Assembly (NCBI GenBank): GCA_963738175.1
Contig: CAVTVI010000006.1
Coordinates: 263,493 to 327,492, forward strand
Direction: 5' to 3'
Source: an uncultured Verrucomicrobiae bacterium
GTDB taxonomy: Bacteria > Verrucomicrobiota > Verrucomicrobiia > Limisphaerales > UBA11358
Length of the DNA stretch: 64,000 nt
The notes beneath the pieces were generated by a model, which was not told the DNA's origin, did not search any database, and saw nothing but the letters and a program-made list of their open reading frames with translations. Every line of letters starts with the position of its first letter. Within the stretch, counting starts at the first letter, position 1. Shown here piece after piece: positions 24,286 to 59,664 of the stretch. A program made the translations under genes and the position numbers.

Positions 24286-25185
24286 CTAGCTGAACCGCAC
24301 GGTCTCATTGCCATCGAGACGTTTGGACAAATCAATGGGATCACCCACGGAAACTTCCTGCGGATTCACCTGATAGGCCCAGACCTGAAAATGAGTCAGG
24401 TTGGCTTCGCCGTAGATGGTTGCGAATGCGCCGTCCACGGCGTCCGCACCGTGCGCGACTTTGACGCGACCGATGCGCGGGACATTGAAACGCGGATCAA
24501 ATGTCAGCCATTCCTGTCCGAGATAAACTTCGCAGTAGGCGTGAAAATCCATCGGCGTGCCGGGATCAATGTAACCGATGTCCGGCAAGTGTCCGGTGAC
24601 ATAGCGCGCGGGCAGATTGAAGGCGCGGCACAGCGCAATCGCCGCGTGCGCGAAATCGCGGCAGACGCCGTGACGCCGCGCGATCACTTCCGAGGCGGAA
24701 AGATCGGGCCGGCCAGAACCGAAGCGGTATTCGATGTTGTTGTGAACCCAGTCGCAGATGGCCTGTACGCGCGGAAGGCCGTGAGGAATCTGGCCGAAAT
24801 TATTCCACGCAAAATTCATCAGCTTGTCCGAATCGCAATAACGGCTCGGCAACGTGTAGCGCAACAATTCATGCGGCAGTTGTCCCACCGGCACGATGTT
24901 GCCAATGATCTCGCGATTGTCGGGCAGCGAAGAAACGGCGACGAGCGCGTCGTGACGGATTTCATTCCGCCCCGGCATGAACGTGGAGCGATAGGTGATG
25001 TTGCCGTGGCTGTCCTGAAATTCATACGACGGCAGGCCGATGCCGAATGAAAGTTTTTCCTGCATCACCAGCACCCGGCCTTCAAGCCGCGGCTTGAGCA
25101 CGAATAATACGGGCGTCGGCACGGTGGTTTCGTAGGCGAGGTTGCAGCCCACGCGGACGGTAAGGTTCAGCGGAGTCCAAGTCAT
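24286..25185 (-). CDS. transglutaminase-like cysteine protease family protein
   Basis: GVCRDFAHAAIALCRAFNLPARYVTG ... DFHAYCEVYL..WLTFDPR (Cys-His-Asp core). Confidence 0.8.
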   Translation of the reverse strand: MTWTPLNLTVRVGCNLAYETTVPTPVLFVLKPRLEGRVLVMQEKLSFGIGLPSYEFQDSHGNITYRSTFMPGRNEIRHDALVAVSSLPDNREIIGNIVPVGQLPHELLRYTLPSRYCDSDKLMNFAWNNFGQIPHGLPRVQAICDWVHNNIEYRFGSGRPDLSASEVIARRHGVCRDFAHAAIALCRAFNLPARYVTGHLPDIGYIDPGTPMDFHAYCEVYLGQEWLTFDPRFNVPRIGRVKVAHGADAVDGAFATIYGEANLTHFQVWAYQVNPQEVSVGDPIDLSKRLDGNETVRFS

Positions 25186-25230
25186 AGGTCAGCACGGCTT
25201 GCAACTTTTGACATTAAAAAATGATGCGGC

Positions 25231-25623
25231 TTATTTGTCGCGCTTCAGGCTGGCCTGGCGCATTTGGTCATGCTCCGCTTCGGCGACACCTTCTTCGACG
25301 AGCCTTTCATTGTCGCTTCGCCCTTCGTCGTCCTCGTCTTCGCCGGCGGCCACCGGCACTTGGTGTCCGGTCGAGCCGGGCAACGGATTCCAGCGTTCGG
25401 ATTCGGGCGCGGATTCGAGAATCATTTCTTTTGGGAACGTTTCCGGTTTGCCCGTCAACTCCCGTTTGGCCTGTTCCCAATCGGATTTCGACACTTCCTG
25501 CGCGGAACGTCCGTTGATAACGGCCAGTTCAACCGCGCGCTCCCGCACCATTTTGCGCGTCACCGTGCCGATGCCGATGGAGTTCTCGGTCAAAATGCCT
25601 TCCTTCAATGGGTTTGTTTTCAT
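25231..25623 (-). CDS. hypothetical protein, DUF2934-like N-terminal segment with an acidic tail
   Basis: 130-aa ORF; VRERAVELAVINGRSAQEVSKSDWEQAKRELTG. Confidence 0.5.
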   Translation of the reverse strand: MKTNPLKEGILTENSIGIGTVTRKMVRERAVELAVINGRSAQEVSKSDWEQAKRELTGKPETFPKEMILESAPESERWNPLPGSTGHQVPVAAGEDEDDEGRSDNERLVEEGVAEAEHDQMRQASLKRDK

Positions 25624-25850
25624 GGGTTAAAAATCAGCGTGCGTGCGAAAGTGTCCCCGCGTTTTGCGCGGTTTTCATTTCGCGCGTGCCGCGATTTTCC
25701 CTTGTGTCGCGGGATTTGGAAAAAATATTGTCGCGCTTTTCCGGTTTTGCCGCAGCCGCATCGGGCTTGGACCACGACCGGTGGAATGTCTGGGCGAAAA
25801 CCGGCGTTTGCCTTATGACTGCAATTTTTTGAGGCGATGATTTCATGGTT

Positions 25851-26372
25851 TTATTTCGCCGCCTGGGAATGGGCTTCGACGAACCACAGCCATTTGTCTA
25901 TGCCGCGCGAAACTTCGGTGAACAAATCCGCCGTGTCGGCGTCGTCCAGCGCGTTCGCCTCGTCAATCGTCGCGCGCGCTTCCTGTCCAAAAGTGGAAAG
26001 CGCCCGCGCCACGGCTTCGACATGCGCCATGCCTTCCGCGATTTGCAGCGGATACTCGGCGAGCCGCGTGCGCGACGCGGCCACGCGCACCGTGCCTTCG
26101 GCGATGCCGCCGAGCTGTACGATACGTTCGGCGATTTTATCCACATAATCTTCCACGGCTTCGTCCACCTTGTCGAACAGTTCGTGCAGGCCGATGAAGC
26201 TCGGGCCTTTCACATTCCAATGCGCCTGCTTCATCTGCGATTGCAGGTCCACGGCGGACGCCAGCCGCTGGTTCATCAGCGCGTTCAGTTCCAGACGATT
26301 TTTCAGCAAAATGTCGTTTTCAGTTTCATACATTTGCGGTGCTTCCTTGAAAGTAGCTTTGGATTTTTTCAT
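25851..26372 (-). CDS. dps: Dps family DNA-protection/ferritin-like protein
   Basis: LQSQMKQAHWNVKGPSFIGLHELFDKVDEAVEDYVDKIAERIVQLGG; ATG at 26372. Confidence 0.9.
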   Translation of the reverse strand: MKKSKATFKEAPQMYETENDILLKNRLELNALMNQRLASAVDLQSQMKQAHWNVKGPSFIGLHELFDKVDEAVEDYVDKIAERIVQLGGIAEGTVRVAASRTRLAEYPLQIAEGMAHVEAVARALSTFGQEARATIDEANALDDADTADLFTEVSRGIDKWLWFVEAHSQAAK

Positions 26373-26404
26373 AAATAAATTTTGATGGTTGTTTGAAATT
26401 TGTT

Positions 26405-26653
26405 TCAGGTCTTGTTGTGAAAGCCGTGGACGCGAGTGCGGTTGCGTTCCGCGAGCAAGTGCGCCTCGGCCTCCAGCCAATGCTGCACCTCGTGTCCCGG
26501 TCGCGAGCCCTGATTCACATAGCTGAAGTAGGCTTTTCTGGCCACTTCATCCGGTGACGGCGCAAAATCAATTTCGTTCTGGCTCAAGCCGGCGATGGCG
26601 GGCGCTGAAGTGCCGGCAGTTTTTTGATTTTGGGGATATTTATTTTGTTTCAT
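26405..26653 (-). CDS. DUF2934 family protein
   Basis: VARKAYFSYVNQGSRPGHEVQHWLEAEAHLL; ATG at 26653. Confidence 0.7.
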   Translation of the reverse strand: MKQNKYPQNQKTAGTSAPAIAGLSQNEIDFAPSPDEVARKAYFSYVNQGSRPGHEVQHWLEAEAHLLAERNRTRVHGFHNKT

Positions 26654-26684: not shown

Positions 26685-26706
26685 CGCCATGGGGTCTTCA
26701 CCCCAT
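26685..26706 (-). promoter_or_regulatory. stress-block palindromic box, copy 1
   Basis: Gene-sense sequence ATGGGGTGAAGACCCCATGGCG, 31 nt upstream of the DUF2934 ATG (DUF2934-dps unit). Confidence 0.6.
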
Positions 26707-26734: not shown

Positions 26735-27775
26735 CTACTGGTTCGTCAGGATGACCTTCAAGGCGCGTTCCCGTCCGGCATTGCCGAAGGTGTCGTAGGC
26801 TTTTAGAATTTCATCGAGCGTGAAGTGATGCGTGATGAGTTGCGTCGGCTTGAGTTTCCCGGCCATGACCGTCTTGAGCAGCAACGGCGTGGTCACCGCG
26901 TCAACTAGCCGCGTCGTGATGGTCACGTTTTGCGACCAAAGTTTTTCGAGATGCAAGGTCACGCCTGCACCATGCACGCCGATGTTGGCAATATGGCCGC
27001 CCACGCCGATGATTTCCTGGCAGATGCCGAATGTCGCGGCCATACCGACTGCTTCGATGGCGACATCCACGCCTTTGCCGGAAGTCATGGCCATTACTTT
27101 TTCGACGGCCTTGCCATCGGTGCTATTGACCACCGCAGTCGCACCGAATTTTTTTGCGACCGCAAGCCGGTTATCATCGAGATCAATGACGATGATGCTT
27201 GCCGGAGCATAAAATTGCGTCGTCAGCAGCGCCGACAAACCGACGGGTCCGGCACCAATGATGGCCACCGTGTCGCCCGGTTTGACACAACCGTTTAGCA
27301 CGCCGCACTCGTAGCCAGTCGGCAAAATGTCGCTAAGCATAACCATCGCGTCGTCGTCCGCGCCCTCGGGAATGGGATAAAGACTGTTGTCCGCAAAAGG
27401 AATCCGGACGAACTCGGCCTGCGTTCCGTCAATCGTGTAGCCAAGGATCCAGCCGCCATGCTCGCAGTGGCCGGGCATGCCGCGCTTGCAATACTCGCAG
27501 GTGGCGCACGAAGTGATGCAGGAGATCATCACGCGGTCGCCCTTGCGAAAGCGGCTGACGCCAGTGCCGGCTTCTTCGATGATCCCGATTCCTTCATGGC
27601 CCAAAATACGGCCGTCAGTGACGACAGGCATGTCTCCTTTGAGAATGTGCAGGTCGGTTCCGCAAATGGTGGTCTTGGTCATCCGTACGATGGCGTCGGT
27701 CGCGTCGCGCAACGCGGGCTTGGGCATTTCTTCCAACTGCTTTTTTCCGGGGCCGTGATAAACGAGAGCTTTCAT
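26735..27775 (-). CDS. zinc-dependent alcohol dehydrogenase family oxidoreductase
   Basis: GHEGIGIIEEAG, structural Zn Cys cluster CTSCATCEYCKRG, Rossmann GAGPVGL. Confidence 0.88.
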   Translation of the reverse strand: MKALVYHGPGKKQLEEMPKPALRDATDAIVRMTKTTICGTDLHILKGDMPVVTDGRILGHEGIGIIEEAGTGVSRFRKGDRVMISCITSCATCEYCKRGMPGHCEHGGWILGYTIDGTQAEFVRIPFADNSLYPIPEGADDDAMVMLSDILPTGYECGVLNGCVKPGDTVAIIGAGPVGLSALLTTQFYAPASIIVIDLDDNRLAVAKKFGATAVVNSTDGKAVEKVMAMTSGKGVDVAIEAVGMAATFGICQEIIGVGGHIANIGVHGAGVTLHLEKLWSQNVTITTRLVDAVTTPLLLKTVMAGKLKPTQLITHHFTLDEILKAYDTFGNAGRERALKVILTNQ

Positions 27776-27793
27776 AAAAATGTGGCGGCAAGG

Positions 27794-28507
27794 TCAATCA
27801 ACTGCGGCGAACGAAGTCGTCTGGTGCGCGGGACTTTGCTCGATGGCTTCCTTGGTCAAATTGACGAACACCGTCGAGTCTTCGTAACTGATCCGCGCAA
27901 CTTTGCCCGCCGGGATCAGCACTTCTTTGCCGGAAAACCGGTGGCCGGTTTTGACGACGAGCCGACCAATCGCCCAGCTCTTGTCGTCCATCATGAAATC
28001 ACAGACGTGGCCGACAATTCCGTCGCTGGCCTTGACATGGTAGCCATTCACCACCCGCGTACTGCGCAGGTGCGCGTCGGCGGTTGCCCGCTTCGGATCC
28101 ATCGCCGACGCCTGTTCACTCAACAGTGGTTTTGCGGGCAATTCGAGGATTGGAAAACCGCTCATGCCCCACAAGCCATCGCCCTGCCAGTAGTAGGGCC
28201 AGCCGTAATAGCGGTAATATTCCTCTTCATACTGGCGCGACACCGGTTTGTGCCACTCGATCGGAGGACTATCCTCAATCTGTTTGCGGGTCAGGTTCAC
28301 GCGCAGGACTTTCCCGGCCTGATTGAGACTGCCGAAGGCATGAGGCGAGAGCAGCACCTGACGGCTCGTCAACCAGGTTCCCGTGTCGGCAACCAGATAA
28401 CGCACCGCCCAGCTCTGATCGTCGAAATAAAAATCTTTCACCTGCCCGATTTCACCATCCGACGCGCCGAGCTTGTCCCCGTATAATTTCTTGATGCTGC
28501 GCAACAT
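27794..28507 (-). CDS. PRC-barrel domain protein (two PRC-like segments)
   Basis: GDKLGASDGEIGQVKDFYFDDQSWAVRYLV and VKASDGIVGHVCDFMMDDKSWAIGRLV; ATG at 28507. Confidence 0.7.
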   Translation of the reverse strand: MLRSIKKLYGDKLGASDGEIGQVKDFYFDDQSWAVRYLVADTGTWLTSRQVLLSPHAFGSLNQAGKVLRVNLTRKQIEDSPPIEWHKPVSRQYEEEYYRYYGWPYYWQGDGLWGMSGFPILELPAKPLLSEQASAMDPKRATADAHLRSTRVVNGYHVKASDGIVGHVCDFMMDDKSWAIGRLVVKTGHRFSGKEVLIPAGKVARISYEDSTVFVNLTKEAIEQSPAHQTTSFAAVD

Positions 28508-28526
28508 AAATTTCAGGTTCGCCTGA

Positions 28527-28961
28527 TTATTTTCCGTTGTTTTGCCCGTGCTGGTCATCCTTTTGATTTTTCTTCTGGCCTTCATTCGAGCCGGATGGCT
28601 TCCAATTTTTCGGATACTTCTGGACCACCGCCGCATGGTGGTTTGCCGGGGAGTCGTGGAAATCCATCTTTACGGACGGGGAAGCCATCAGCACATTCAC
28701 CGTGACACCGCGTGGCGCCGGTCGTGCCACCCAGTCGTTGCCTTCCCGGTAGGCGTATTGGTGCCGGCTCACGCTGTAATAACATTCATACTGGGGGTAA
28801 TAAACGTAATCATCTTGCGCGGCGAACGCATAAGCATCCACTTGGACCCCGGCGCGCGGCCCGTCCACATAACCCACGCATCCGGTCAGCGTCACCAGAA
28901 GCACGGCGGCGAGCGTGAAAACAACCTTGCTGGTTTTGAAGAAAAGTTTTTTATAAATCAT
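28527..28961 (-). CDS. small secreted/lipoprotein, unknown family (paralog of 45854..46288)
   Basis: Signal/lipobox LVTLTGC. Shares the core DDYVYYPxY..YY.S.RHQYAY..G..WV..P.P.GV.V.VL.ASPSV.MD.HDSP..HHA...QKYP.NW.P.G with the paralog. Confidence 0.65.
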   Translation of the reverse strand: MIYKKLFFKTSKVVFTLAAVLLVTLTGCVGYVDGPRAGVQVDAYAFAAQDDYVYYPQYECYYSVSRHQYAYREGNDWVARPAPRGVTVNVLMASPSVKMDFHDSPANHHAAVVQKYPKNWKPSGSNEGQKKNQKDDQHGQNNGK

Positions 28962-28992: not shown

Positions 28993-29014
28993 CGCCATGG
29001 GGTGTAACCCTACC
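28993..29014 (-). promoter_or_regulatory. stress-block palindromic box, copy 2
   Basis: GGTAGGGTTACACCCCATGGCG, 31 nt upstream of ATG 28961. Confidence 0.6.
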
Positions 29015-29059: not shown

Positions 29060-30529
29060 TCACTCCATCGCCGCCAGCAGTTCATCCAGCAAAACGGTGG
29101 CGAAGCTCGTGGCCGAATCACTCATCGCGTAGGGGATGATGAGTTCACGTCCATGCAGCAGCGCGCCGCAAGTGTAGACGACGTTTGGAACATAACCTTC
29201 GCGCTCCGCTTCGTTGGGGCAAAGGAATGGTTCGCGCAAACGTTTGATGACGCGCGCCGGATCGTTCAGGTCGAGCAGGAACGCGCCGAGGCAATACCTC
29301 CGCATCGCGCCGACGCCGTGGCTCAACACCAGCCAACCCGCTTCCGTTTCAATCGGCGAGCCGCAGTTGCCCAGCTTGATGAACTCCCACGGTTGCGCGG
29401 GAGATTGCAACACTTTTGGCTCCGCCCAAAAATGAATATTGTCCGAAAACATGATCAAAATGTTCTCGTCGTCCTGCCGCGAAAGCATGAAATACTTCCC
29501 ATTGATCTTGCGCGGGAACAACGCCATGCCTTTGTTCTGCACGGCGGGGCCGTTCAACGTGCGGAATTTGAAATTTACAAAGTCCGGCGTCTCCAGCAAT
29601 TGCGGCAGCGTGATTTTTCCGTCATAAGCGGTGTAGGTCGCGAAGTAAGTGAAGCTGCCGTCGTCGTTTTGGAAACGGACGAAGCGCGCGTCCTCGATGC
29701 CGTTGCTCTGGCTGGGCGCGGACGGAAAAAGCACGCGTTGAGAAATTTTGCTATCGGGCGCGAAGTGGACTTCGTAATTCGATTCCGCCAGCAGCAAAAT
29801 TCCGCGCGCGGCGTGGCTCGCCGTGGCGTCGGACGTGTCTTCCGTCAGACCTGACGCAAATAGAACCGCGTGCAATTCCTTCAGCGTAAAACCTTCGTGC
29901 AGCTTGTCCAGCACGCGTCGGCAAAAATCATTTTGCACGCCCGCCTCTTCAAGTTTGTGCGCGAACAATCCCTTGTCGTAGGCGGCATTCGGCACGCGCT
30001 CCGGCTCCATCACGAACGGCACGGGCGGCGTGAGCGTGATGCGATGTTGCGCGCTGACGACGCCGACGCGAAAGGTGATCGAGGAAATGTGCCCCTCGCC
30101 CGTCGCGCGCAAACTCAAGACGAAACGCAGCGCGCCCTTGGGCAATCCGCTTTGGTCGGGATGCGGCACGATGGACGGATTGAACAGCGCCGCCGATTCC
30201 GGCGAATACTCGTGCGTGAAATATGCGCCGATGAGCATCTGTCGTTCGGGCGACGGTGTCGCGCCGGGTTCGAGGTAAATGTTCACCTGCCCGAAGCGTT
30301 CGCGAAAAATTTCCTCGACGTGTTCGTGCCGGTTCGCAAATTCACCGAGCACCTGCGCCAGCAATTTGGCGACTTCTTCTTCCGGCAAGGCCATGACTCG
30401 CGCAACGATGTGCCGCGAAATGTCATCCGTGGTCGGACGAAACGGGCGCAACAGCACGCGCGAACGATCCGGCGTCAGCGTCGGCCCGATGCGTTTGGCG
30501 TGGAGAGTTGTATTTTTCAAAACAGGCAA
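29060..30529 (-). CDS. GH130-family glycosidase/beta-mannoside phosphorylase-like protein
   Basis: C-terminal five-bladed-propeller-type region DARFVRF..YFATYTAYDG..MALFPRKINGKYFMLSRQD..GSPIETEAGWLVLSHGVG..YCLGAFLLD..VPNVVYTCG. Confidence 0.7.
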   Translation of the reverse strand: MPVLKNTTLHAKRIGPTLTPDRSRVLLRPFRPTTDDISRHIVARVMALPEEEVAKLLAQVLGEFANRHEHVEEIFRERFGQVNIYLEPGATPSPERQMLIGAYFTHEYSPESAALFNPSIVPHPDQSGLPKGALRFVLSLRATGEGHISSITFRVGVVSAQHRITLTPPVPFVMEPERVPNAAYDKGLFAHKLEEAGVQNDFCRRVLDKLHEGFTLKELHAVLFASGLTEDTSDATASHAARGILLLAESNYEVHFAPDSKISQRVLFPSAPSQSNGIEDARFVRFQNDDGSFTYFATYTAYDGKITLPQLLETPDFVNFKFRTLNGPAVQNKGMALFPRKINGKYFMLSRQDDENILIMFSDNIHFWAEPKVLQSPAQPWEFIKLGNCGSPIETEAGWLVLSHGVGAMRRYCLGAFLLDLNDPARVIKRLREPFLCPNEAEREGYVPNVVYTCGALLHGRELIIPYAMSDSATSFATVLLDELLAAME

Positions 30530-30532
30530 CGG

Positions 30533-32815: not shown

Positions 32816-32866
32816 GAAATTTTTTCGGGCAGCACGGGTGGATTTACCCGCCAGCTTCGCAGTCTT

Positions 32867-33178
32867 TTATTTTTCTTTTTGCCCGCATCGTTGCGGGCGA
32901 AATGCCGACCAGAGCGAGCCGGCCAGTTGCGCGCCTTTTAGAACGGTTTGCAGCCACGAAGGTTTTTCGGCGGCGGGCGCGGATTCTTTTTTGCGCCGGA
33001 AGGACGCAAGGCCGGTGACCAGCGAGACGGCGGATGACGCCAGCGAACCGATGGTCCTGGCCTGGCTTGTCAGCGAATGAACCTCGTCCGAAATTGTCCG
33101 CAATTCCTGGATCAGTTGCACGCGGTTGAGTTCGCTTTCCGCAATCAACAATTTTTTCCGCGAGGCGAGCGGGTTCAT
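32867..33178 (-). CDS. YqjK-like small protein
   Basis: MNPLASRKKLLIAESELNRVQL.. Its start overlaps the upstream stop (ATGA). Position after the YqjD/YqjE-like genes matches the E. coli yqjDEK order. Confidence 0.5.
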   Translation of the reverse strand: MNPLASRKKLLIAESELNRVQLIQELRTISDEVHSLTSQARTIGSLASSAVSLVTGLASFRRKKESAPAAEKPSWLQTVLKGAQLAGSLWSAFRPQRCGQKEK

Positions 33179-33564: not shown

Positions 33565-33571
33565 AACGAAA

Positions 33572-49921: not shown

Positions 49922-49984
49922 AAGATTTCTTTCGGTTGATTTGCCGGCGGGCGCGCTTTGCGTCCGCCGGCACTCAATTGACGT

Positions 49985-50842: not shown

Positions 50843-50864
50843 CGCTATGGGGTGTAACCCTACC
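50843..50864 (-). promoter_or_regulatory. stress-block palindromic box, copy 13
   Basis: GGTAGGGTTACACCCCATAGCG, 72 nt upstream of ATG 50770. Confidence 0.6.
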
Positions 50865-50903: not shown

Positions 50904-51047
50904 TCATTTGGTGCCGTTCTGAATTCCCTGGCCGGCGTTTGAAACATCCTTGCCGAAGCCATGGGCCGTGTTGCAGCCCATGCCGGCGACGAGCGCGAGC
51001 GCGGTGACGGATGACAGAACGACGATGAGTTTGATTCGCTGGAACAT
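50904..51047 (-). CDS. entericidin-like small lipoprotein
   Basis: MFQRIKLIVVLSSVTALALVAGMGCNTAHGFGKDVSNAGQGIQNGTK; ATG at 51047. Confidence 0.7.
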   Translation of the reverse strand: MFQRIKLIVVLSSVTALALVAGMGCNTAHGFGKDVSNAGQGIQNGTK

Positions 51048-51137
51048 ATTTTTATGTTTGGGTTGATGGTTTTGCTGCGGGGTGATGAGCAATATTTTAT
51101 TTTTCACGGCCAGAGTATCACCCGGCCACCTTGCCGA

Positions 51138-51159
51138 CGCCATGGGGTGTAACCCTACT
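51138..51159 (-). promoter_or_regulatory. stress-block palindromic box, copy 14
   Basis: AGTAGGGTTACACCCCATGGCG, 90 nt upstream of ATG 51047. Confidence 0.6.
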
Positions 51160-51223: not shown

Positions 51224-54001
51224 TTAAACCGGTTTCGCCGCGCCGGGTTGATCAAGCACTTCGCGCACTTTGTTCGCCAGCGCGGACGGCGTGAACGGTT
51301 TCTGCAGGAGCGCCACGCCCTTGTCCAACACGCCTTGGTGGACGATGGCGTTCTCGGTGTAGGCCGAGGTGAAAAGAATCTTGGTCTGCGGCCGCAACGC
51401 CCGCAAGCGGTCGGCCAGTTCCTTGCCGCTCATGTGTGGCATGACGACATCGGTGAACAACAAATCAATATAGCCGGTGTCACGCTGTTGTTTCAGGTTC
51501 AAGGCCTCGACGCCATTGGCCGCCGTCAAAACAGTGTAGCCCAGACGCCTTAACAATGTCGCCGCCATCTCCCGCAAGGCAGGATCGTCCTCGACCAGCA
51601 GAATGGTTTCCGTCCCGTGCGGCAAATCCGGCGAGCCCAAACGCAGAATGGGAATCTTCGCCTCCGATTCCATTTGCGGCAGATAAATTTTGAAAGTCGT
51701 GCCGCGCCCCGGTTCGCTATAAATGCTGATATGACCTCCACTTTGTTTGATGATGCCGTAACAGGTGGACAAGCCCAGGCCGGTTCCCTGTCCAACGTCT
51801 TTGGTGGAAAAAAACGGCTCGAACACGCGCGCCTTCACTTCGTCGCTCATGCCCGTGCCCGTGTCCGTGATCGCCAGCATCACATAATCGCCCGGTTTCA
51901 ATTCGGGATAACGGCCTACGCTCTCTTCGTCGAACGAGACGTTCGCCGTTTCCAGAATGAGTTTGCCGCCGTTGGGCATGGCATCGCGCGCGTTGATCGC
52001 CATGTTTATGATGACCTGTTCAATCTGTCCGGCGTCCACCTTCACCATATGCAGGTCACTGGCGGGGACAATCTGTGCATTCACATCACCACCCATGAGA
52101 TGGCGAAGCATGCCTTCCATGCCTGCGATGACCTGGTTGAGATCGAGGGCTTCCGGTTGAAGAAATTGCTTGCGGCCATACGCCAGCAGTTGCCGGGTCA
52201 GTGCGGCGGCCCGGCTGGCGGCCCGGTTGATTTCGTTCGCGTTTTTGACCAGCGGACTTCCGGCGGGGAGATCGCCGAGCAGCAATTCACTCTGGCCGAT
52301 GATGGCCGTCAGGATGCTGTTGAACTCGTGCGCAAAACCGCCCGCCAGTTTGCCGACGGTCTCCATTTTTTGGGATTGCAACAACTGGGCTTCGATCCGT
52401 TTGCGCTCGGTGATGTCGCGACCCATGCCAACGAGTCCGATGATCGTGCCAGTCGCGTCACGCAAGGGAATTTTTGAGCTAAGGGACCAGTGGGTTTCAC
52501 CGGCTGCGGTGACGATTTTTTCCTCATGGTTGATGAGGGGCTGGCCGGTTTGAATCACAGCCTGGTCATCGGCAAAATATCCCGCAGCCAGTTCTTCAGG
52601 ATAAATTTCAAAATCGCTTTTGCCGATGGCTTCGGCTTCCGTCTGACAGCCCATGTTTTTCAATTCGGCCAGATTGGCGAGCGTTTTACGACCGGCCAGG
52701 TCTTTGATGTAAATGGTATCCGGTGAATTATCAATCATGGTGCGCAACAGATTGCGTTCTTGCGCCAGCGCAGCGTCAGCCTGCCTGTGTTCGGTGATGT
52801 CAAAAAATATTCCCTGCGTGCCTATGATTTTTCCATCCGAGCCAAATACCGGCGATTTCACAACTTGCCAATACTGTATTTTCCCATCCACACTGGGATA
52901 CTGTTCCTCCACATCGATTCGCTTGCCTGTTTCCATTATCCATTGATGATTAATCGCGCCCTGAATCGCCAACTGGATCTCTTTCGCCGCTTCCGGATGG
53001 TTTGCGAATTCGCTGGCTGCAAGTTCCCGAGACGTTTTGCCCAGGATTTGTTCCGGCGTCATGCCTTTGATCCGGCAATACCAGGAATTCACAAAAACAA
53101 AGCGGCCTTCCGCATCCTTGCGGAAAACGCCGGCGGGCAATTGATCAACCAGCGAATGGTAAAGCGCCTGCGAGTCGGCCAGTTCCCCGGTTCGTTCCTC
53201 AACCTGCGCCAAAGTATGCGACAATTGCGTGCGGCTGCGGCGGGCGGCCAGCAAAACGAACATGACCGCGCCAAAGGCGACGGCGATGTTCGCGATGCCG
53301 AACAGGATGGCGTTATTCTTGATCCAGCCAAAACTGGCAAACGTCGCACTGGCCTGCCCGCCGGAAAAATGATAGCCATAGTCGCTAAAGGCATTTGCGG
53401 CGGCGGTCACACGTTCGGTCAGCGGGGGAATGTTCTGATCCATCGCCTTCATGGCGGCGGCAAAATCCGAGTCTTCCAAGTTCTGGACTTTGCGGAATTC
53501 GGTGTCCAGATCGTTAAAGGCATTTTCCAGATTGGATGCCAGGTTCCGGCCCTCGCCTTCGGGCAGAAGCGTCTTGATGTTTTCCAATTCCGCGCGCGTT
53601 TGAACCGCCGTGTCTTGCACCGCCTTCGCCTTGCCGGCTTTTTCCCCTTGCTGCGCGAAAAGATATTCGTAGGAGTCGAGCCGGTAGATGGCCAGATGCT
53701 CCTGCAACGACGCCAACTCGTTGAGCGCGGGCAGACCCTGATGTTCCAGCGATGCGGCGGTTTTCATCCCGGTTTTGCACACCTGCCAGAGCGTGAACAT
53801 TTGAACAACGGCGAAAACGAAAATCAAAAAAACGACGAGCAGAATGTGGCGGAACGTCGCCCAGAGCGGACGGATTTCCTTTTCGTAGGCCAAAGCGCCA
53901 CGCGCTTCGCCCGCCTCATCCGTTTGCCGGTGCAATCCCTTCGCGGGGCTCGCGGTTTTTTCACGGCTTCCGGTTTGGTTGTTTTTTTGGGTCTTATCCA
54001 T
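51224..54001 (-). CDS. membrane hybrid sensor histidine kinase (helical sensor, PAS x2-3, HisKA, HATPase, REC)
   Basis: TM helices flank a ~170-aa helical domain. H-box FAHEFNSILTAI; DTGTGM; GTGLGLS. C-terminal REC ILLVEDDPALREM..LLFTDVVMPHMSG. Confidence 0.9.
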   Translation of the reverse strand: MDKTQKNNQTGSREKTASPAKGLHRQTDEAGEARGALAYEKEIRPLWATFRHILLVVFLIFVFAVVQMFTLWQVCKTGMKTAASLEHQGLPALNELASLQEHLAIYRLDSYEYLFAQQGEKAGKAKAVQDTAVQTRAELENIKTLLPEGEGRNLASNLENAFNDLDTEFRKVQNLEDSDFAAAMKAMDQNIPPLTERVTAAANAFSDYGYHFSGGQASATFASFGWIKNNAILFGIANIAVAFGAVMFVLLAARRSRTQLSHTLAQVEERTGELADSQALYHSLVDQLPAGVFRKDAEGRFVFVNSWYCRIKGMTPEQILGKTSRELAASEFANHPEAAKEIQLAIQGAINHQWIMETGKRIDVEEQYPSVDGKIQYWQVVKSPVFGSDGKIIGTQGIFFDITEHRQADAALAQERNLLRTMIDNSPDTIYIKDLAGRKTLANLAELKNMGCQTEAEAIGKSDFEIYPEELAAGYFADDQAVIQTGQPLINHEEKIVTAAGETHWSLSSKIPLRDATGTIIGLVGMGRDITERKRIEAQLLQSQKMETVGKLAGGFAHEFNSILTAIIGQSELLLGDLPAGSPLVKNANEINRAASRAAALTRQLLAYGRKQFLQPEALDLNQVIAGMEGMLRHLMGGDVNAQIVPASDLHMVKVDAGQIEQVIINMAINARDAMPNGGKLILETANVSFDEESVGRYPELKPGDYVMLAITDTGTGMSDEVKARVFEPFFSTKDVGQGTGLGLSTCYGIIKQSGGHISIYSEPGRGTTFKIYLPQMESEAKIPILRLGSPDLPHGTETILLVEDDPALREMAATLLRRLGYTVLTAANGVEALNLKQQRDTGYIDLLFTDVVMPHMSGKELADRLRALRPQTKILFTSAYTENAIVHQGVLDKGVALLQKPFTPSALANKVREVLDQPGAAKPV

Positions 54002-54517: not shown

Positions 54518-55732
54518 TTAGAAACTGAATGTGGTTTTGAGCGCGAGCATGAACCAGCCGTCGTCGTTTCTCACCGGGTTGTTGGCATTGTCATCCAACA
54601 GCCCGGTGCCACGGATGTAATGTCCCTCCACCTTGAAAACCCACCACGGTTCCGGGTCGAAGCGGAATGAAAGCGCCAGGTCTTTTTGGGAAGCATCCGA
54701 CGGAGCGGCAAGTTTCCCGCCATTATAATATTCCGTATAGTAGCCGCCGACTACCAGCCACTTGTTAAAACGATAGTCCGCGCTGCCATACCAGGCCTCG
54801 CTGGCGCTAAATGTATGAGTGGCGCCGATGTCCTGGCTGACCTGGATATTGTAATACTCGGCTTGGAACGTCCAATCTTTCCACAAGTATTCGGCGGAGT
54901 ATTGTTGCAATATGACGGGACCCTCGGCGCGCAATGAAATTGAGGAGGGGTTTGGTGGCGGAGCTCCCGTAGGCACTTTAAAATTGTAATCAAAATTGAA
55001 CAAGTATCCAAGGGATGCGCCGAAGCGCAGGCCGTTCACCGGGGTGTTCCACCATAATTGGGAGCCGGCGGTTGATATCTGATCGAAGGAAGTTATGTTC
55101 CCGCCTGGCGGCAGCGAATTGTTGATTACATTCGCCACGCCACTGTCCGGCGCGATGTTGATGAATCCCGCATAAGCTTCGTAAGAAAGACCACCCGCCT
55201 TGCTCAACGGAATGTTTCCGAAAAGAGCGCCCCCATCCAGCGTGCAGGAAAGATTTCGAAAACGCGCGTCATAAATTCCCTGCGGCAACAGCACAAACGT
55301 GCGCGCCAGATCCACGTCTTGAATATCATTGTAAATGCCGCCCGGCTTGCGAATCCGTCCCGCGCGCAGGCCAATGTAGTCGTTAAAGGTATATTCAGCG
55401 GAAGCATAATCGAGAAAGGGCTGGTATTTGCCGGCATCACCCACGTCAAACAGAAATCCTTGCGCCGCGATGTGCGTGCGCGGAAACGGATTGAGCGAAG
55501 TATTTAAGCCGACTTCCATGTATTCGAATGAACCGTTCCTGGTGTTATCGGCGAGGTAATTATATTTGGTCGTGTCCAGAAATCCCTGGCTGACGAAGCC
55601 GTGGAAATCAAATGGCGGCATATTGGTGCCAAGGAGATTCAATTCCGCAGCTTCAAGGTGGCAGGCCGTCAAAGCAACCGGTAATGCAAGCAGCAACCTC
55701 CCGGTCAACTGCCTGATAATGGTTTTGTTCAT
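54518..55732 (-). CDS. outer-membrane porin-like beta-barrel protein
   Basis: Signal peptide MNKTIIRQLTGRLLLALPVALTA; alternating beta-strand pattern; C-terminal ..LKTTFSF. Confidence 0.6.
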   Translation of the reverse strand: MNKTIIRQLTGRLLLALPVALTACHLEAAELNLLGTNMPPFDFHGFVSQGFLDTTKYNYLADNTRNGSFEYMEVGLNTSLNPFPRTHIAAQGFLFDVGDAGKYQPFLDYASAEYTFNDYIGLRAGRIRKPGGIYNDIQDVDLARTFVLLPQGIYDARFRNLSCTLDGGALFGNIPLSKAGGLSYEAYAGFINIAPDSGVANVINNSLPPGGNITSFDQISTAGSQLWWNTPVNGLRFGASLGYLFNFDYNFKVPTGAPPPNPSSISLRAEGPVILQQYSAEYLWKDWTFQAEYYNIQVSQDIGATHTFSASEAWYGSADYRFNKWLVVGGYYTEYYNGGKLAAPSDASQKDLALSFRFDPEPWWVFKVEGHYIRGTGLLDDNANNPVRNDDGWFMLALKTTFSF

Positions 55733-55815
55733 ATTATGACTGTTAGATGACTGGCTGGATTGATTCGCGACACTGGAGTCAATTTTGCCAATGAATGGAT
55801 TTGCTCTCACAAGCT

Positions 55816-57813
55816 TCATGCAATGGCAGGGGGACTTTGACGGACCGTCACTCCTTCCTTCCGAAGAAGGGCGGTGTCAGTTTTATTATCCAGCATGGCG
55901 CGCACTTTGCGGGCGAGGGTGGCGGGCGTGTAGGGTTTGGACAGGAATTCAACCCCGGCTTCAAAGACGCCATGCTGGGCGATGGCCTCGTCGGTGTAGC
56001 CGGAAGTGAACAGGATTTTGAGATCAGGATAAGTTGCCTTCAGCCACACGGCCATCACTTTGCCGCTCATCACCGGCATGATGACATCGGTGACGACCAG
56101 GCGGATCGGCGTTCCTTTATGTTCGCGCGCCACTTGCAACGCCTCCTGCCCGTTGTTCGCGCGCAGCACATTGTAACCTTGGCCTTCCAAAACGCTGCAG
56201 GCCAGATGACGCACGGACGGCTCATCTTCAACGAGCAACACGGTTTCCGTCCCGCGCGGAATCGGGCCCGTTGCGGCGATTTTGGTTGAAATGTCAATGG
56301 GCTGTTCAACGCGCGGGAAATAAATCTTGAAGACCGTGCCCTTGCCCAGCTCGCTTTGCACTTCAATATGGCCGCCGCATTGCTGGACGATGGTCTGGCA
56401 GGTCGCCAGTCCCAGACCCGTGCCCTTGCCCACTGGCTTGGTCGTGAAAAACGGCTCAAACAACCGCCTTTTCACTTCCTCGCGCATGCCGGTTCCCGTG
56501 TCACTGACACTCAACATCACATAATCGCCGGGAATTAAGCCTGCGCGCGTGTGCGCGTCGTTTTCATCGAACGTGACGTTGCCGGTGGTGATGGTGAGCT
56601 TGCCGCCGTTGGGCATGGCGTCGCGGGCGTTGACGATCAGATTCATTATCACCTGTCCGATCTGGCCGGCGTCAGCCTTGATGCGTCCGGTTTCCTTTCC
56701 GGGGACAATCGTCATCTCGATGTGCTCATCAATGAGTCGGCGCAACATTTTGTCCAGGTCAACCACCACGTCTTTGAGGTCAAGCACGACGGTTTGCACG
56801 GTTTGCCTGCGGCTGAAGACGAGCAGTTGCCGCGTCAGCGCGGCGGCGCGATCCGATGCGTGCCGGATCTCCTCAATGTATTTTCGCAGCGCACTTTTCG
56901 GGTCAAGGTCGGCCATGATCAAATCGGTGTAACCGATGATGACGGCGAGAATGTTGTTGAAGTCATGCGCCACGCCGCTGGCGAGATGGCCGACCACCTC
57001 CATTTTTTGCGCCTCGATGAACTGCGTCTCCAGCTTCTTGCGTTCGGTAATATCCTGGGCCGTCCCGAACAGGCCCACGACCTTGCCCTCGGCATCCTCC
57101 ATCGTGTATCCAATCTCCCGGATCGTCTTCAAGACGCCAGCCCGCATTTGGATGCGGTATTCGAGCTCGAAGGATGTCCCGCCCGCTCTGGCTTCGGCAT
57201 TCGTCCGCAGAACCTCCGGCCGGTCGTCGGGAAGCACGCGATTCAAAAAAGTCTCATATCTGCCATCGAACAGCGCCTTTTCGATTTCAAAAATCCGGCA
57301 AAGCTCATCTGACCATCGCAGCTTTTTGCTGGCTAGGTTATACCGCCAGCTTCCCATCTTGGCGACACGCTGGGCCTCCGCTAAATCAGCTTCATTCTCT
57401 CGCAACTTCACATACGTCTGTTTGCGTTCATCACGCTCCACCACTTCCCGCATGGCGCGGCGCACGGCGGGAACAAGACGGGCGAGACGTTCCTTCAGGA
57501 CATAATCCGTCGCGCCGCTCTTGAGCGAATCAATGGCCCGTTCCTCGCCCAGCGACCCGGAAACCAGAATGACCGGCAGGTCGGGCCAACTGGCGCGCAC
57601 GATTTCCACGGCGGACAACCCGTCAAACGCAGGCAGCGAGAAGTCCGAAAGAATCAGGTCAATGCCGCCGCGTTCAAGCGCCGCCACAAACTCATCGCGG
57701 TTTTGCACGCAGGTAACCGCGCAAGGGATGTCCCCCGCTTCCAGCGTGGATTGAATGAGCGCGGCATCGTGGGGATCATCCTCCAGATGCAGGATGCGGA
57801 GCGGGGATTTCAT
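55816..57813 (-). CDS. hybrid histidine kinase (REC-PAS-HisKA-HATPase-REC)
   Basis: N-terminal REC ILHLEDDPHDAALI..LILSDFSLPAFDG; H-box VAHDFNNILAVI; VSDTGTGM; GTGLGLA; C-terminal REC VLLVEDEPSVRHL..LVVTDVIMPVMSG. Confidence 0.9.
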   Translation of the reverse strand: MKSPLRILHLEDDPHDAALIQSTLEAGDIPCAVTCVQNRDEFVAALERGGIDLILSDFSLPAFDGLSAVEIVRASWPDLPVILVSGSLGEERAIDSLKSGATDYVLKERLARLVPAVRRAMREVVERDERKQTYVKLRENEADLAEAQRVAKMGSWRYNLASKKLRWSDELCRIFEIEKALFDGRYETFLNRVLPDDRPEVLRTNAEARAGGTSFELEYRIQMRAGVLKTIREIGYTMEDAEGKVVGLFGTAQDITERKKLETQFIEAQKMEVVGHLASGVAHDFNNILAVIIGYTDLIMADLDPKSALRKYIEEIRHASDRAAALTRQLLVFSRRQTVQTVVLDLKDVVVDLDKMLRRLIDEHIEMTIVPGKETGRIKADAGQIGQVIMNLIVNARDAMPNGGKLTITTGNVTFDENDAHTRAGLIPGDYVMLSVSDTGTGMREEVKRRLFEPFFTTKPVGKGTGLGLATCQTIVQQCGGHIEVQSELGKGTVFKIYFPRVEQPIDISTKIAATGPIPRGTETVLLVEDEPSVRHLACSVLEGQGYNVLRANNGQEALQVAREHKGTPIRLVVTDVIMPVMSGKVMAVWLKATYPDLKILFTSGYTDEAIAQHGVFEAGVEFLSKPYTPATLARKVRAMLDNKTDTALLRKEGVTVRQSPPAIA

Positions 57814-58327
57814 GGTTGACCTCCTTCTTTCCGGGAGAAAGGACTTCACCGTTTTGGATCGAAGTTTCATCTCTCACTATATTTGGCGGCGGTTCATTGA
57901 CCGCCGCCCAAAAGACACCGACTTGTTTGACCGCCTTCATAAACTCCGAAAAATCCACGGGCTTTACCACATAGGCGTTGACGCCATGCTTGTAAAACTC
58001 GGCCAAATCGGGCGCTTCACGCGAAGAAGTGAGCACCACGACCGGAATCAACTTCAAATGTTCGTCCGCCTTCATGGTTTTCAGAACTTCCAATCCGCTG
58101 ACCTTGGGCATTTTGTTGTCGAGCAAGACGACCACGGGATTGCCGGGCGGGCGGCTTTTGAATTTCCCCCGGTGATAAAGATAATCCAGCGCCTCCGCGC
58201 CGTCGTGAACGACTTTGACCTTGTTGGCCAGATGTTGCTCCTCCAGCGCGGTCAACGTCAGTTCCACATCCCGCAGATCATCCTCGACCAGCAGGATGTT
58301 TTTGATGCTTCTGCTTTCAGTGTTCAT
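57776..58327 (-). CDS. single-domain response regulator (CheY/Rcp1-like)
   Basis: ILLVEDDLRDVELT..VVLLDNKMPKVSG..VVVLTSS..AYVVKPVDF. Confidence 0.9.
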   Translation of the reverse strand: MNTESRSIKNILLVEDDLRDVELTLTALEEQHLANKVKVVHDGAEALDYLYHRGKFKSRPPGNPVVVLLDNKMPKVSGLEVLKTMKADEHLKLIPVVVLTSSREAPDLAEFYKHGVNAYVVKPVDFSEFMKAVKQVGVFWAAVNEPPPNIVRDETSIQNGEVLSPGKKEVNHEIPAPHPASGG

Positions 58328-59537
58328 TGATGACTCCGTTTTGTTGCTTTGGGATTGAAAAATAAAAAGTCGCGCCGCCGTCCATCACGCCTTCCGCCCA
58401 CACCCGGCCGCCGTGCCGGTGAATGATGCGCTGGACGTTCGCCAGCCCGATGCCCGTGCCCTCGAACTCGGCCTGACTGTGCAGGCGCTGAAACACGCCG
58501 AACAGTTTGTGGGCATATTGCGGATCGAAACCCGCGCCGTTGTCGCGGATGAAAACCACCGTCTCACCATCGCCGCCCGGAACACAGCCAATCTCGATTT
58601 TGGCCTCGGCGCGGCCGCCGGTGAACTTCACCGCATTGGAAATCAGATTGACCAGCACCAGGCGCAACAGGGCGCGGTCGGCCTGAACGGCCGGCAGCGG
58701 AAGGATTTTGCACGCAATCTTCCGCTCTTTTGTCTCGGCCTGAAAATCACCCAAGGTTTCGCGGACCAGTTCTTCGAGATTGATTTCCGTCTTTTTCAAT
58801 TCGGCACGTCCTATGCGCGAGAACGCCAGCAGGTCGTCAATCAAATCACCCATGCGCTTGGTTGACTGGGAAATAACGGCCAGATGCCGGAGGCTTTTTT
58901 CGGACAGCGACGGCCCAGCGTCGTTTTGCAGCAGATTCACGAAGCCCAGAACATGGCGCAGCGGCGCGCGCAAATCGTGCGAGACGGAATAACTGAACGC
59001 TTCCAGCTCCGCATTGGCGGCTTCCAGTTGCGCCGTGCGTTCAGTGACACGCTGCTCCAGTTCCGCGTTGAGACGTCGTATTTCACCTTCCGCCCGTTTG
59101 TGCTCGGTTATGTCGCGGATGTTGCATTGAATCACTTTTTTGTCACCGGCTTCATACACATTGCTGACAAACTCGACGGCACTCTTGCGACCGTCCCTCG
59201 TTTCCAGCGGCAGATGCTCATAGCGGACATAACCGTTCTTTTGTAATCGCTCAAGCATGACCTTGTTCGACTCGATGTCCTTGAACGGACTCAACTCGCC
59301 GACAGTTAGGCCGACCATTTCGTTGCGGGAAAAACCCAAGAGGTTAACCAGGAAAGGATTCACATCAGTGATGCGGCCCGTATCCACATTCAGAATCAGG
59401 ATGCCGTCCTTTGCCGCTTCAAACAGCCGGCGATAACTGATTTCAGAGGCGCGAAGCGCCTGCTCTGTCCGCGTCTCGTCTGGCACAGTGTGGATTTCGC
59501 TGTGAGCAACATTCCGGTTTTGATGATCACTGTTCAT
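58317..59537 (-). CDS. cytoplasmic PAS histidine kinase
   Basis: PAS (YRRLFEAAKDGILILN); H-box VSHDLRAPLRHV; IRDNGAGF; GTGIGLA. Confidence 0.9.
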   Translation of the reverse strand: MNSDHQNRNVAHSEIHTVPDETRTEQALRASEISYRRLFEAAKDGILILNVDTGRITDVNPFLVNLLGFSRNEMVGLTVGELSPFKDIESNKVMLERLQKNGYVRYEHLPLETRDGRKSAVEFVSNVYEAGDKKVIQCNIRDITEHKRAEGEIRRLNAELEQRVTERTAQLEAANAELEAFSYSVSHDLRAPLRHVLGFVNLLQNDAGPSLSEKSLRHLAVISQSTKRMGDLIDDLLAFSRIGRAELKKTEINLEELVRETLGDFQAETKERKIACKILPLPAVQADRALLRLVLVNLISNAVKFTGGRAEAKIEIGCVPGGDGETVVFIRDNGAGFDPQYAHKLFGVFQRLHSQAEFEGTGIGLANVQRIIHRHGGRVWAEGVMDGGATFYFSIPKQQNGVINEH

Positions 59538-59640
59538 GATCCTGTCACCGTTAATTTCATTTCTCCCCGCAAAGTTTGGCTTACGCCATCAAGAGATTTC
59601 TCGGGCAATGGTTTAATGATGAACAGAAAAGGGACACAAT

Positions 59641-59664
59641 CGCCATGGGGTGTTCACCCCATGG
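59641..59664 (-). promoter_or_regulatory. stress-block palindromic box, copy 15 (perfect 10-bp arms)
   Basis: CCATGGGGTG-AA-CACCCCATGG followed by CG, 103 nt upstream of ATG 59537. Heads the six-gene signalling operon. Confidence 0.6.

Follow-up and report, generated by a model that had tools for sequence, protein, structure and literature searches.

A recurring promoter box and a NarL-type two-component operon in a Verrucomicrobiae genome: a candidate response regulator-driven general stress regulon

The described systems closest to the one considered here are stress regulons driven by a response regulator. Our subject is a 64,000-nucleotide stretch of an uncultured Verrucomicrobiae bacterium (contig CAVTVI010000006.1; hereafter the window, meaning the whole stretch analysed), in which a recurring 22-nt sequence, the box, stands before the genes of a block of stress-type functions that also holds a two-component operon. 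In the DevR/DosR system of Mycobacterium tuberculosis, a NarL-family regulator with the HisKA_3 histidine kinases DosS and DosT controls several dozen stress and dormancy genes, partly clustered, through a ~20-bp GC-rich palindrome with a GGG/CCC core (consensus TTSGGGACTWWAGTCCCSAA, GGGACT-WW-AGTCCC); the operon is autoregulated and many targets in that phylum are leaderless. Each of these features has a counterpart, observed or predicted, in the window, where the box reads GGGGTG-AA-CACCCC in place of the DosR sequence. In LiaFSR/VraSR of Firmicutes, the operon is likewise autoregulated and the regulator is likewise paired with a HisKA_3 kinase, VraR being the closest solved relative of the window regulator. 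At class II promoters of LuxR, a GerE-type dimer occupies a ~20-bp inverted repeat that replaces the -35 element, the lux box being centred at -42.5, an arrangement similar to the one proposed below. Finally, in Deinococcus a conserved palindrome, the radiation/desiccation response motif (RDRM) of the DdrO-IrrE system, lies phylum-wide in promoters of leaderless stress genes, as the box does here; there the palindrome serves as an operator for an XRE-type repressor, which a metalloprotease cleaves.

The box was found by a repeat search and reads CCATGGGGTGTTCACCCCAT or CCATGGGGTGTAACCCTACC on the forward strand. Most genes of the block lie on the reverse strand, and the gene-sense form is ATGGGGTGAA or GGTAGGGTTA followed by CACCCCATRGCG (also written with CACCCCATGGCG as its second part). 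It occurs in two discrete forms with few intermediates: V1, a perfect 8-2-8 palindrome, ATGGGGTG-AA-CACCCCAT, and V2, GGTAGGGTTA-CACCCCAT, which is not symmetric, its left arm being displaced by 1 bp; the right half, CACCCCAT, is invariant in both. A weight matrix built solely from 202 sites of other genomes finds 16 boxes in the window, with scores of 13-33 bits and all within ~33 kb, at 26685-59662, while the same matrix gives 0-2 matches (mean 0.25) at a threshold of at least 8 bits in Markov-shuffled windows; with a degenerate pattern, the window yields 14 matches where shuffles predict 0.23. The remaining 31 kb of the window hold no box by this matrix, and these flanks encode pyruvate:ferredoxin oxidoreductase, dihydroorotate dehydrogenase, adenylate kinase, Hyp maturation proteins, NiFe hydrogenase, a proton-translocating pyrophosphatase, rpsB, tsf, pyrH, fpg, MOSC proteins and a permease. 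All 16 boxes are oriented toward an open reading frame (ORF), and by their orientation nearly all genes between 24286 and 59537 could be under their control; only an fn3 protein (34543-35484) and a pilin-like and RCC1-repeat pair (42928-45808) are excepted.

The position of the box relative to the genes behind it is equally regular. When 200 sites from outside the window are aligned on the box, the 70 nt upstream stay at or below 0.1 bit throughout; within the box, GG at positions 4-5 and ACACCCCAT at positions 9-17 are 91-100% conserved and G19 and C20 ~90%, with T17, G19 and C20 ranging over 88-100%. Eighteen nt past the box there is a TAnnnT hexamer (T40, A41 at 66% and T45 at 69%), and an A-rich stretch begins at ~+55. 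The first ORF of at least 30 residues starts at +51 to +54 in 60 of the 200 sites, where control offsets predict 4.9, and start codons are concentrated 6-8 nt after the hexamer; in the window, eight boxes are followed by an ORF of at least 35 residues starting at +52 to +59. The simplest reading is that TAnnnT is a -10 hexamer of the housekeeping type with no canonical -35 (that position reads TRGCGN, not a usable TTGACA), and that the transcript begins ~52 nt from where the box starts, in many cases at the start codon itself, predicting leaderless mRNAs. Because the hexamer lies 18 nt downstream and the start codons cluster 6-8 nt later, the centre of the V1 palindrome would fall near -43.5, with CACCCCAT at about -42 to -35. 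This is the geometry of a class II activator-dependent promoter, where the activator site is centred near -41.5 to -43.5; the modal position of the start codon, 43.5 nt beyond the palindrome centre, serves here as the presumed start site. Leaderless starts are reported to make up 10% of start sites in Akkermansia muciniphila (PMC4782308), TANNNT beside the start codon is a signature of leaderless genes in Deinococcus and mycobacteria (PMC4007540, PMC4633059), and the proximal DevR box overlaps the -35 element of its promoter (PMC3029386).

Other readings of the box were weighed against this geometry. An extracytoplasmic function (ECF)-type promoter, with the box as -10 and CGGAA(A/T) or CGGGAC 25-27 nt upstream as -35, is ruled out by the unconserved upstream sequence of the 200 sites. 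Neither a sigmaB-like (GGGTAT-like) nor a sigma32-like (CCCCATNT-like) -10 within the box has a partner -35 at 13-17 nt upstream, and both are rejected because the TAnnnT hexamer and the start-codon peak place the start site elsewhere; for sigma54, the GG-N10-GC spacing, read by eye, is not kept across sites. A structured cis-RNA was also dismissed, Rfam at its gathering threshold matching tRNA-Asn alone; so was a structured RNA or repetitive extragenic palindromic (REP) element, as the left arm changes without compensation while the right arm is invariant, the flanks are unconserved and the box lies upstream of the inferred start. One could instead suppose, by analogy with DdrO at RDRM sites, that the box is an operator whose repressor (the regulator in its unphosphorylated state, or some other protein) covers the -35 region until stress removes it. 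A palindrome over promoter elements of leaderless stress genes does resemble that arrangement, and a protein sitting at -52 to -31 would block sigma region 4. However, these promoters offer no -35 hexamer to hide, reading TRGCGN from -35 to -30, and look activator-dependent; a centre at -43.5 is where class II activators classically bind and lies farther upstream than in the Deinococcus system, and among the window ORFs scanned we found neither an XRE-type repressor nor an IrrE-like protease. We therefore regard repression at the box as very unlikely.

A candidate activator lies within the block itself, in an operon of three genes on the reverse strand. The last of them encodes a NarL/FixJ-type response regulator (46767-47450; Pfam Response_reg receiver domain 4.6e-27, GerE helix-turn-helix 6e-18), the proposed box reader. 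It is preceded by HK379 (47466-48605), a HisKA_3 histidine kinase with an RsbU_N-like N-terminal helical domain (HisKA_3 2.6e-14, HATPase_c 7.1e-14), and by its paralog HK232 (48602-49300), which has the same N-terminal domain and the H-box RELHDEIAQTL but is not a complete kinase, HisKA_3 being present and HATPase_c absent. Both are soluble, without a transmembrane or hydrophobic segment. Their shared N-terminal domain of ~100 residues is conserved; its sequence finds a single match in the PDB, to the RsbU N-domain with a marginal E value of 0.017, and the Pfam RsbU_N score is slightly below the cut-off. The regulator falls in the NarL/VraR/DevR class, in which dimers recognise inverted repeats: the closest solved relatives are VraR (E = 3.8e-45), NarL, DesR and DevR, the last in sixth place among PDB matches, and the PDB matches of the GerE domain are EsrB, VraR, NarL-C and DosR-C. 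NCBIfam assigns no equivalog to the kinases, to the regulator or to six unknown proteins; for the regulator none of the named families (NarL, UhpA, MctR, UvrY and others) applies, the best score, 207 bits, being to MctR, for which the cut-off is 300. Cluster representatives at 84-93% identity to the regulator number more than 120 and are Verrucomicrobiae where named. The receiver motif VVLMDIAMP is present in all orthologs, and among orthologs of 64-88% overall identity neither the recognition helix KTVEKHR nor the C-terminal tail varies, while the inter-domain linker is 7% invariant. This nearly invariant tail, GIIESSVQLTI(V/L), extends beyond the GerE domain (46767-46840) and may offer a surface for contacts with RNA polymerase or with a protein partner.

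Linkage between this operon and the box recurs outside the window. A tblastn search with the window proteins finds regulator orthologs of 55-81% identity in ~17 of the 119 box-selected 8-kb tiles listed and, with the kinase pair included, part of the operon in ~21-23 of them; the chance of a given single-copy gene falling in a random 8-kb tile is ~0.2%. In a box-blind test, all nine loci chosen by the regulator alone carry at least two boxes; these comprise five close relatives (L001, L002 and L131-L133 among our compared stretches) and four loci of another family (L134-L137), whose regulators are 75-91% identical to the Akkermansiaceae query used and roughly 65-70% identical to the window regulator. 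A weaker GGGTTTYACCCCAT variant of the box, GGTAGGGTTT(C/T)ACCCCAT, lies 80-140 nt before the operon's first gene, both in the window and at 14 further loci, from Limisphaerales-like genomes to Akkermansiaceae, and in most loci a strong box follows the stop codon of the regulator (46677-46698 in the window). Because of this tile linkage, the box-blind loci, the flanking boxes and the invariant recognition helix, we consider the response regulator of 46767-47450 to be probably the reader of the box, and an autoregulated one. A preliminary description of the window, made from its letters alone, had found no sigma gene, had left the controlling factor unknown and had given too little weight to the signalling genes of the block. 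The absence of a sigma gene stands for the window ORFs scanned, but a controlling factor is probably not lacking, because the block holds the NarL-type operon and five further kinase and receiver genes (two hybrid kinases, a PAS kinase and two receiver-only proteins, to which the LuxR-type regulator discussed below adds another signalling gene).

We propose the following scenario. HK379 would phosphorylate the NarL-type regulator, with HK232, a phospho-accepting helical domain without an ATPase, perhaps tuning the activity of HK379. A dimer of the phosphorylated regulator would then bind the box near -43.5, overlapping the -35 position, and, in the class II manner of DevR/DosR and LuxR, recruit the holoenzyme of RNA polymerase. 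The weaker box variant upstream of the kinase-regulator operon might provide positive autoregulation, and the box-fronted PAS kinases, receiver-only proteins and LuxR-type regulator might add feedback or a second tier. What the sequences show directly is the statistics and conservation of the box, its place in the promoter, the genes behind it and the tie between box and operon; DNA binding by this regulator, activation as opposed to repression, and stress as the signal are inferred. For this mechanism as a whole, in which the regulator would read the box and activate a stress regulon, we estimate a probability of roughly 0.6.

Several considerations weigh against it. Linkage could merely mean that the two-component system is itself a member of the regulon. 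In the few box-bearing Lentisphaerae/Kiritimatiellales tiles no regulator ortholog was seen, tiles too few to be informative; at seven loci (L027, L028, L063, L085, L118, L123 and L130) no box was detected upstream of the operon; and the genome-wide distribution of the box was sampled from at least 119 stretches. The highly conserved T-R-G-C from -35 to -32 might be the target of a special sigma factor in place of an activator, and the asymmetric V2 form fits a simple homodimer less well, hinting at a second reader, such as RR2 of relatives or the LuxR-type protein, both with the helix KTVEYHR.

The first of these points may be developed into the proposal that the reader is encoded outside the window, either as an unrelated transcription factor or as an alternative sigma factor devoted to these promoters, its region 4 recognising CACCCCATRGC in the role of an extended -35, and that the local two-component system only belongs to the regulon. 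The most conserved bases do reach the -35 position (T17, G19, C20), the genes of master stress sigma factors often lie apart from the regulons that they control, and the Lentisphaerae/Kiritimatiellales tiles just mentioned fit such a distant reader. The outputs are those of the sigmaB, RpoS and EcfG-NepR-PhyR responses (CsbD, YflT, Dps, OsmY/BON, ElaB/YqjD, entericidin and PRC-barrel proteins), with a marginal likeness on the input side in the RsbU_N-like kinases. Unlike those sigma-driven responses, however, the window combines a housekeeping-type -10, TAnnnT, with an upstream palindrome and has no sigma or anti-sigma gene: as the preliminary description had stated, no RpoS, sigmaB or EcfG-type sigma gene and no PhyR/NepR-like gene occurs among the window ORFs scanned, where no Sigma70_r2 protein was found and the Sigma70_r4_2 matches are cross-hits on GerE domains. 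Nor is there a sigma gene in ~150 kb of Pfam-annotated related loci, including every annotated box-rich locus, or a sigma-specific -35/-10 pair (GTTTAA-N14-GGGTAT, GGAAC-N16-CGTT) at the aligned sites, given the unconserved upstream sequence and the TAnnnT -10. An element of about 18-22 bp, half of whose copies are perfect palindromes, looks like the usual target of a transcription factor that binds as a dimer, not like a -35, and the regulator operon is flanked by boxes both upstream and downstream across families. We regard a reader encoded elsewhere as unlikely.

The two box classes invite a refinement of the scheme in which the NarL-type regulator reads the box. Genes whose product begins with a hydrophobic segment are enriched directly behind V2 (45 of 89 first genes, against 22 of 93 behind V1; Fisher p = 2e-4). 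The LuxR-type regulator of the block (35520-36065, reverse strand) carries ~10 TRTEQAE heptads and a GerE helix-turn-helix with the recognition helix KTVEYHR, has no receiver domain and lies behind a V1 box; it is possibly a second-tier regulator. The same helix is found in RR2, a GerE-type protein that adjoins the V2-driven DUF883 operon in L002, L131 and L132, and the two helix-turn-helix domains are 66% identical. Thus the response regulator might read V1, while a second GerE-type protein, either the 35520-36065 product or RR2, alone or as a heterodimer, reads V2, which preferentially fronts envelope proteins. The discreteness of the two forms, the enrichment behind V2 and the placement of these two proteins speak for such a division. 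Against it, V2 is commonest where no ortholog of the LuxR-type protein or RR2 was seen, V2 or V2' boxes directly flank the operon of the main regulator, and both classes share the invariant right half, so this two-tier arrangement, possible as it is, appears to us quite unlikely.

Two side observations concern these regulators. The TRTEQAE-like heptads correspond to 21-nt DNA repeats at 35833-36042, and the same repeat heads a 707-residue box-fronted PAS hybrid kinase in a close relative (L001:10842-11100); the run looks like a mobile coiled-coil module. In another close relative (L002:6256-10684), kaiC, two kaiB genes and a PAS-HisKA_3 kinase gene take the place of HK232 and HK379 directly upstream of the orthologous regulator, with a weak box before kaiC at 6014, which suggests that a Kai timer may feed the same regulon.

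The regulon is probably not confined to the window. With one genome scanned per species, at least 119 eight-kb stretches carry the box, although taxon labels of several metagenome-assembled genomes (MAGs) are unreliable. Most of the stretches listed are from members of Verrucomicrobiota (Limisphaerales, Pedosphaera, Verrucomicrobiaceae, Prosthecobacter, Akkermansia/Akkermansiaceae, Opitutaceae, Chthoniobacter and Methylacidiphilales), of Lentisphaerae/Victivallales and of Kiritimatiellales. When the first ORF behind 149 non-window boxes was scanned against Pfam, the commonest families were BON (7), Response_reg (5), DUF2934 (4), and PAS (kinases), RRM_1, DUF5670 and OMP_b-brl (3 each), followed by Ice_binding, DUF3300, Ferritin, DUF3309, PRC, YHS, AMPK1_CBM and YflT (2 each); the remaining first genes encode mostly small proteins without a family. 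No ribosomal or core-metabolic family is among the 25 commonest, and the housekeeping genes beside the block have no box, so that in this sample there is no sign of boxes before unrelated housekeeping genes genome-wide, the finding that the preliminary description had named as fatal to its proposal of one general-stress-type regulon. That proposal gains in silico support from the recurrence of the same box-fronted families in many genomes of the Planctomycetes-Verrucomicrobia-Chlamydiae (PVC) superphylum. Its further remark that the clustering is unusual did not hold: boxes elsewhere are usually clustered too, at 3-8 per 8-15 kb, though they also occur 1.5 Mb apart on one contig (L044, L099). 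Close relatives (regulator 92% identical) share the sub-blocks of the window, but in differing orders and located between ilvD and mlaA, and in L133 everything lies in three co-oriented box-driven units. Clustering is thus a lineage trait of the regulon and not a peculiarity of the window, which holds no private island; the block would rather appear to be a local concentration of a general-stress-type regulon that extends across Verrucomicrobiota and neighbouring phyla, a reading we think fairly probable from the comparison of genomes.

Some of these genomes deserve separate mention. Six stretches labelled 'uncultured Bifidobacteriaceae (binchicken)' (L019, L025, L079, L090, L115 and L130) carry 3-6 boxes per tile and proteins 41-85% identical to those of the window; evidently the labels are wrong or the bins chimeric. 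Four stretches labelled Acidobacteriota (L012, L082, L083 and L121; Terriglobia with three boxes on a 637-kb contig, Acidobacteriaceae and Sulfotelmatobacter) have boxes with a correctly spaced -10, and reflect either a regulon that reaches beyond PVC or mis-binned contigs. Box-fronted Ice-binding-like (PF11999; L001:5984-8010) and RRM_1 RNA-binding proteins in some relatives hint that cold or freezing may be among the stresses covered.

A different origin for the block was suggested by its border. The sole tRNA of the window, tRNA-Asn(GTT) (24166-24240, forward strand), and the last gene of unit 1 run toward each other, and 45 nt separate the tRNA from 24286, where the block begins with the end of that gene (~50 nt in the preliminary description); nothing there resembles an integration site. 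On this basis the block might be a horizontally acquired island at tRNA-Asn, with the boxes as island repeats. Yet we found no integrase or transposase, no repeat of the tRNA 3' end and no shift in GC content, which is ~56% window-wide and 53-60% both inside and outside the block without a break at its edge. The same genes lie between ilvD and mlaA in close relatives, the unconserved flanks of the boxes are not those of miniature inverted-repeat transposable elements (MITEs) or REP elements, and the box spans several phyla. An island is, in our judgement, exceedingly improbable.

The content of the block agrees closely with the stress-type families first listed for it, Pfam confirming nearly all: Ferritin/Dps, DUF2934, PRC, Zn-dependent alcohol dehydrogenase (Zn-ADH), DUF883 (YqjD/ElaB), Phage_holin_3_6 (YqjE-like), CsbD, three BON proteins, entericidin, DUF5670, PLD, GT4, GH130, Transglut_core, AMPK1_CBM and SLT. 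No profile matched the YqjK (32867-33199) or the two outer-membrane barrels also named there. Box 1 (26685-26706, reverse strand; V1 ATGGGGTGAAGACCCCATGGCG, 27.2 bits; ATG at +53 from the box start) fronts unit 1 (24286-26653, reverse), with DUF2934 (26405-26653), Dps/ferritin (25851-26480, its longest ORF overlapping the DUF2934 gene), a 130-residue acidic protein (25231-25623) and Transglut_core (24286-25185). Box 2 (28993-29014, reverse; V2 GGTAGGGTTACACCCCATGGCG, 32.1 bits; ATG at +53) fronts unit 2 (26735-28961, reverse), comprising a 144-residue lipoprotein, a PRC-barrel protein and the Zn-ADH. Box 3 (34347-34368, reverse; V2, 31.7 bits; leader of ~56 nt) precedes unit 3 (29060-34260, reverse), which encodes AMPK1_CBM, DUF883 (ElaB/YqjD-like), Phage_holin_3_6 (YqjE-like) and 110-residue proteins together with GT4 (760 residues) and GH130 (489 residues), and which is box-fronted also in L002 and L131-L133. 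Box 4 (36103-36124, reverse; V1, 25.7 bits) stands before the LuxR-type regulator and is divergent from box 5 (36179-36200, forward; V2, 24.9 bits), behind which lies a 201-residue lipoprotein (36351-36956). Box 6 (36986-37007, forward) is weak and V1-like (13.2 bits), with a 20-residue hydrophobic mini-ORF at +54. Box 7 (39592-39613, reverse; 32.1 bits; ATG at +54), a perfect V1 palindrome, fronts a 410-residue envelope protein and a PLD/cardiolipin-synthase-like protein (37108-38289), and box 8 (40629-40650, reverse), again weak and V1-like (14.0 bits), fronts a frameshifted SLT lytic transglycosylase (39620-40616). Box 9 (40713-40734, forward; V2' GGGTTTTACCCCAT, 24.7 bits) precedes a PEP-CTERM protein (40974-41747) and CsbD (41773-42021), and box 10 (42735-42756, reverse; V1-like, 19.1 bits) a receiver-only protein (42199-42666), with a 35-residue ORF at +52.

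In the second half of the block, box 11 (46319-46340, reverse; V2, 28.4 bits; ATG at +52) fronts a second 144-residue lipoprotein (45854-46288). Box 12 (46677-46698, reverse; V1, 29.6 bits) lies 69 nt past the stop of the response regulator, before a protein of 61-65 residues, and its position recurs in relatives. Box 13 (49389-49410, reverse; V2' GGTCGGGTTTCACCCCATATCC, 21.1 bits), missed by a matrix made from window sites alone and scored by the other-genome matrix, lies 89 nt upstream of the HK232-HK379-regulator operon with a -10-like GACAAT at 49365-49370, and is a candidate autoregulatory promoter of that operon. Box 14 (50843-50864, reverse; V2, 32.6 bits), kept in L001, L002 and L131-L133, fronts unit 14 (49526-50770, reverse), with three BON proteins (OsmY-like), DUF5670 and a 71-residue protein with two transmembrane segments, and its transcription may read through into the two-component operon. 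Box 15 (51138-51159, reverse; V2, 32.3 bits; GTG at +52) precedes an entericidin-like lipoprotein (50904-51107). Box 16 (59641-59662, reverse; 32.1 bits), another perfect V1 palindrome, heads six genes: a PAS kinase (58317-59537), a receiver-only protein (57776-58327), a hybrid kinase (55816-57870), a 433-residue putative outer-membrane barrel (54518-55819) with a signal peptide and the C-terminus ...TTFSF, a 141-residue PBP-like protein and a second hybrid kinase (51224-54001). Dozens of small box-fronted proteins without annotation are flagged as candidate stress effectors.

A few genes show peculiarities of their own. The two 144-residue lipoproteins (28527-28961 and 45854-46288, both reverse) are paralogs separated by 17.3 kb and 74-77% identical in DNA; both immediately follow a V2 box, neither belongs to a Pfam or NCBIfam family, and orthologs occur in L024, L120 and L124. 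The lytic transglycosylase is split over two frames, with the signal peptide and N-terminal part at 39816-40616 and the SLT domain at 39620-40078, which reflects either a real frameshift or pseudogene or else an assembly indel. Outside the block, pyrH (AA_kinase) and fpg (Fapy_DNA_glyco and H2TH) form one 465-residue ORF without a stop between them (22524-24112, forward), the Fpg zinc finger lying in the next, overlapping frame (23912-24112), which suggests unusual fusions or errors by indels; a similar split affects HK379 in L133. The box-less pair at 42928-45808 (forward), a 270-residue protein with a prepilin-type N-terminal motif and a 684-residue protein with 12 RCC1 repeats, has a local GC content of 60% and looks like an unrelated insertion.

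Returning to the systems with which we began, the differences are as instructive as the likenesses. Where DosS and DosT sense through haem-GAF domains, the window has soluble RsbU_N-like kinases and an ATPase-less paralog, with no GAF domain in these proteins; its regulator is nearer to VraR than to DevR; and its regulon, with BON, CsbD, Dps and ElaB, resembles sigmaB and RpoS targets, whereas that of DosR features universal stress proteins and alpha-crystallin. LiaS and VraS are membrane kinases acting under LiaF, but the kinases here lack transmembrane segments, the operon has no LiaF-like gene, the NCBIfam LiaS score of the window kinase is 92 bits against a cut-off of 450, and the regulon is larger and not envelope-limited. 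LuxR differs in responding to an acyl-homoserine lactone ligand, in place of the phosphorylation expected here, and in its small regulon. The regulon may be seen as a variant of response regulator-driven stress regulons such as that of DosR, functionally most like DevR/DosR, by sequence like VraR/LiaR and by output like sigmaB, RpoS and EcfG. In the literature we reached on stress regulators, promoter motifs and two-component regulons of Verrucomicrobia and Akkermansia, with limited coverage of subscription journals, neither this box nor this system is described, nor is any general stress regulator for the PVC superphylum.

Taken jointly, these considerations outline a tentative picture, to which we give somewhat less than even odds. 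Verrucomicrobiota, probably together with Lentisphaerota/Kiritimatiellota and possibly some Acidobacteriota, would run their general stress response not by an alternative sigma factor but by a three-protein phosphorelay, made of an RsbU_N-like HisKA_3 kinase, its ATPase-less paralog and a NarL-type regulator, which acts through a ~25-bit box at -43.5 of mostly leaderless promoters; the two box classes would divide envelope from cytoplasmic and regulatory targets, and a KaiC-KaiB timer would be wired in for some lineages. The PVC bacteria include Akkermansia, abundant soil and freshwater Verrucomicrobia, and methanotrophs, and a defined box with a candidate master regulator would make their stress regulons readable from MAGs. 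If the scenario is true, CsbD, BON, Dps, ElaB and YflT, which are placed under an alternative sigma factor in Firmicutes and Proteobacteria, would here be under the control of a two-component regulator.

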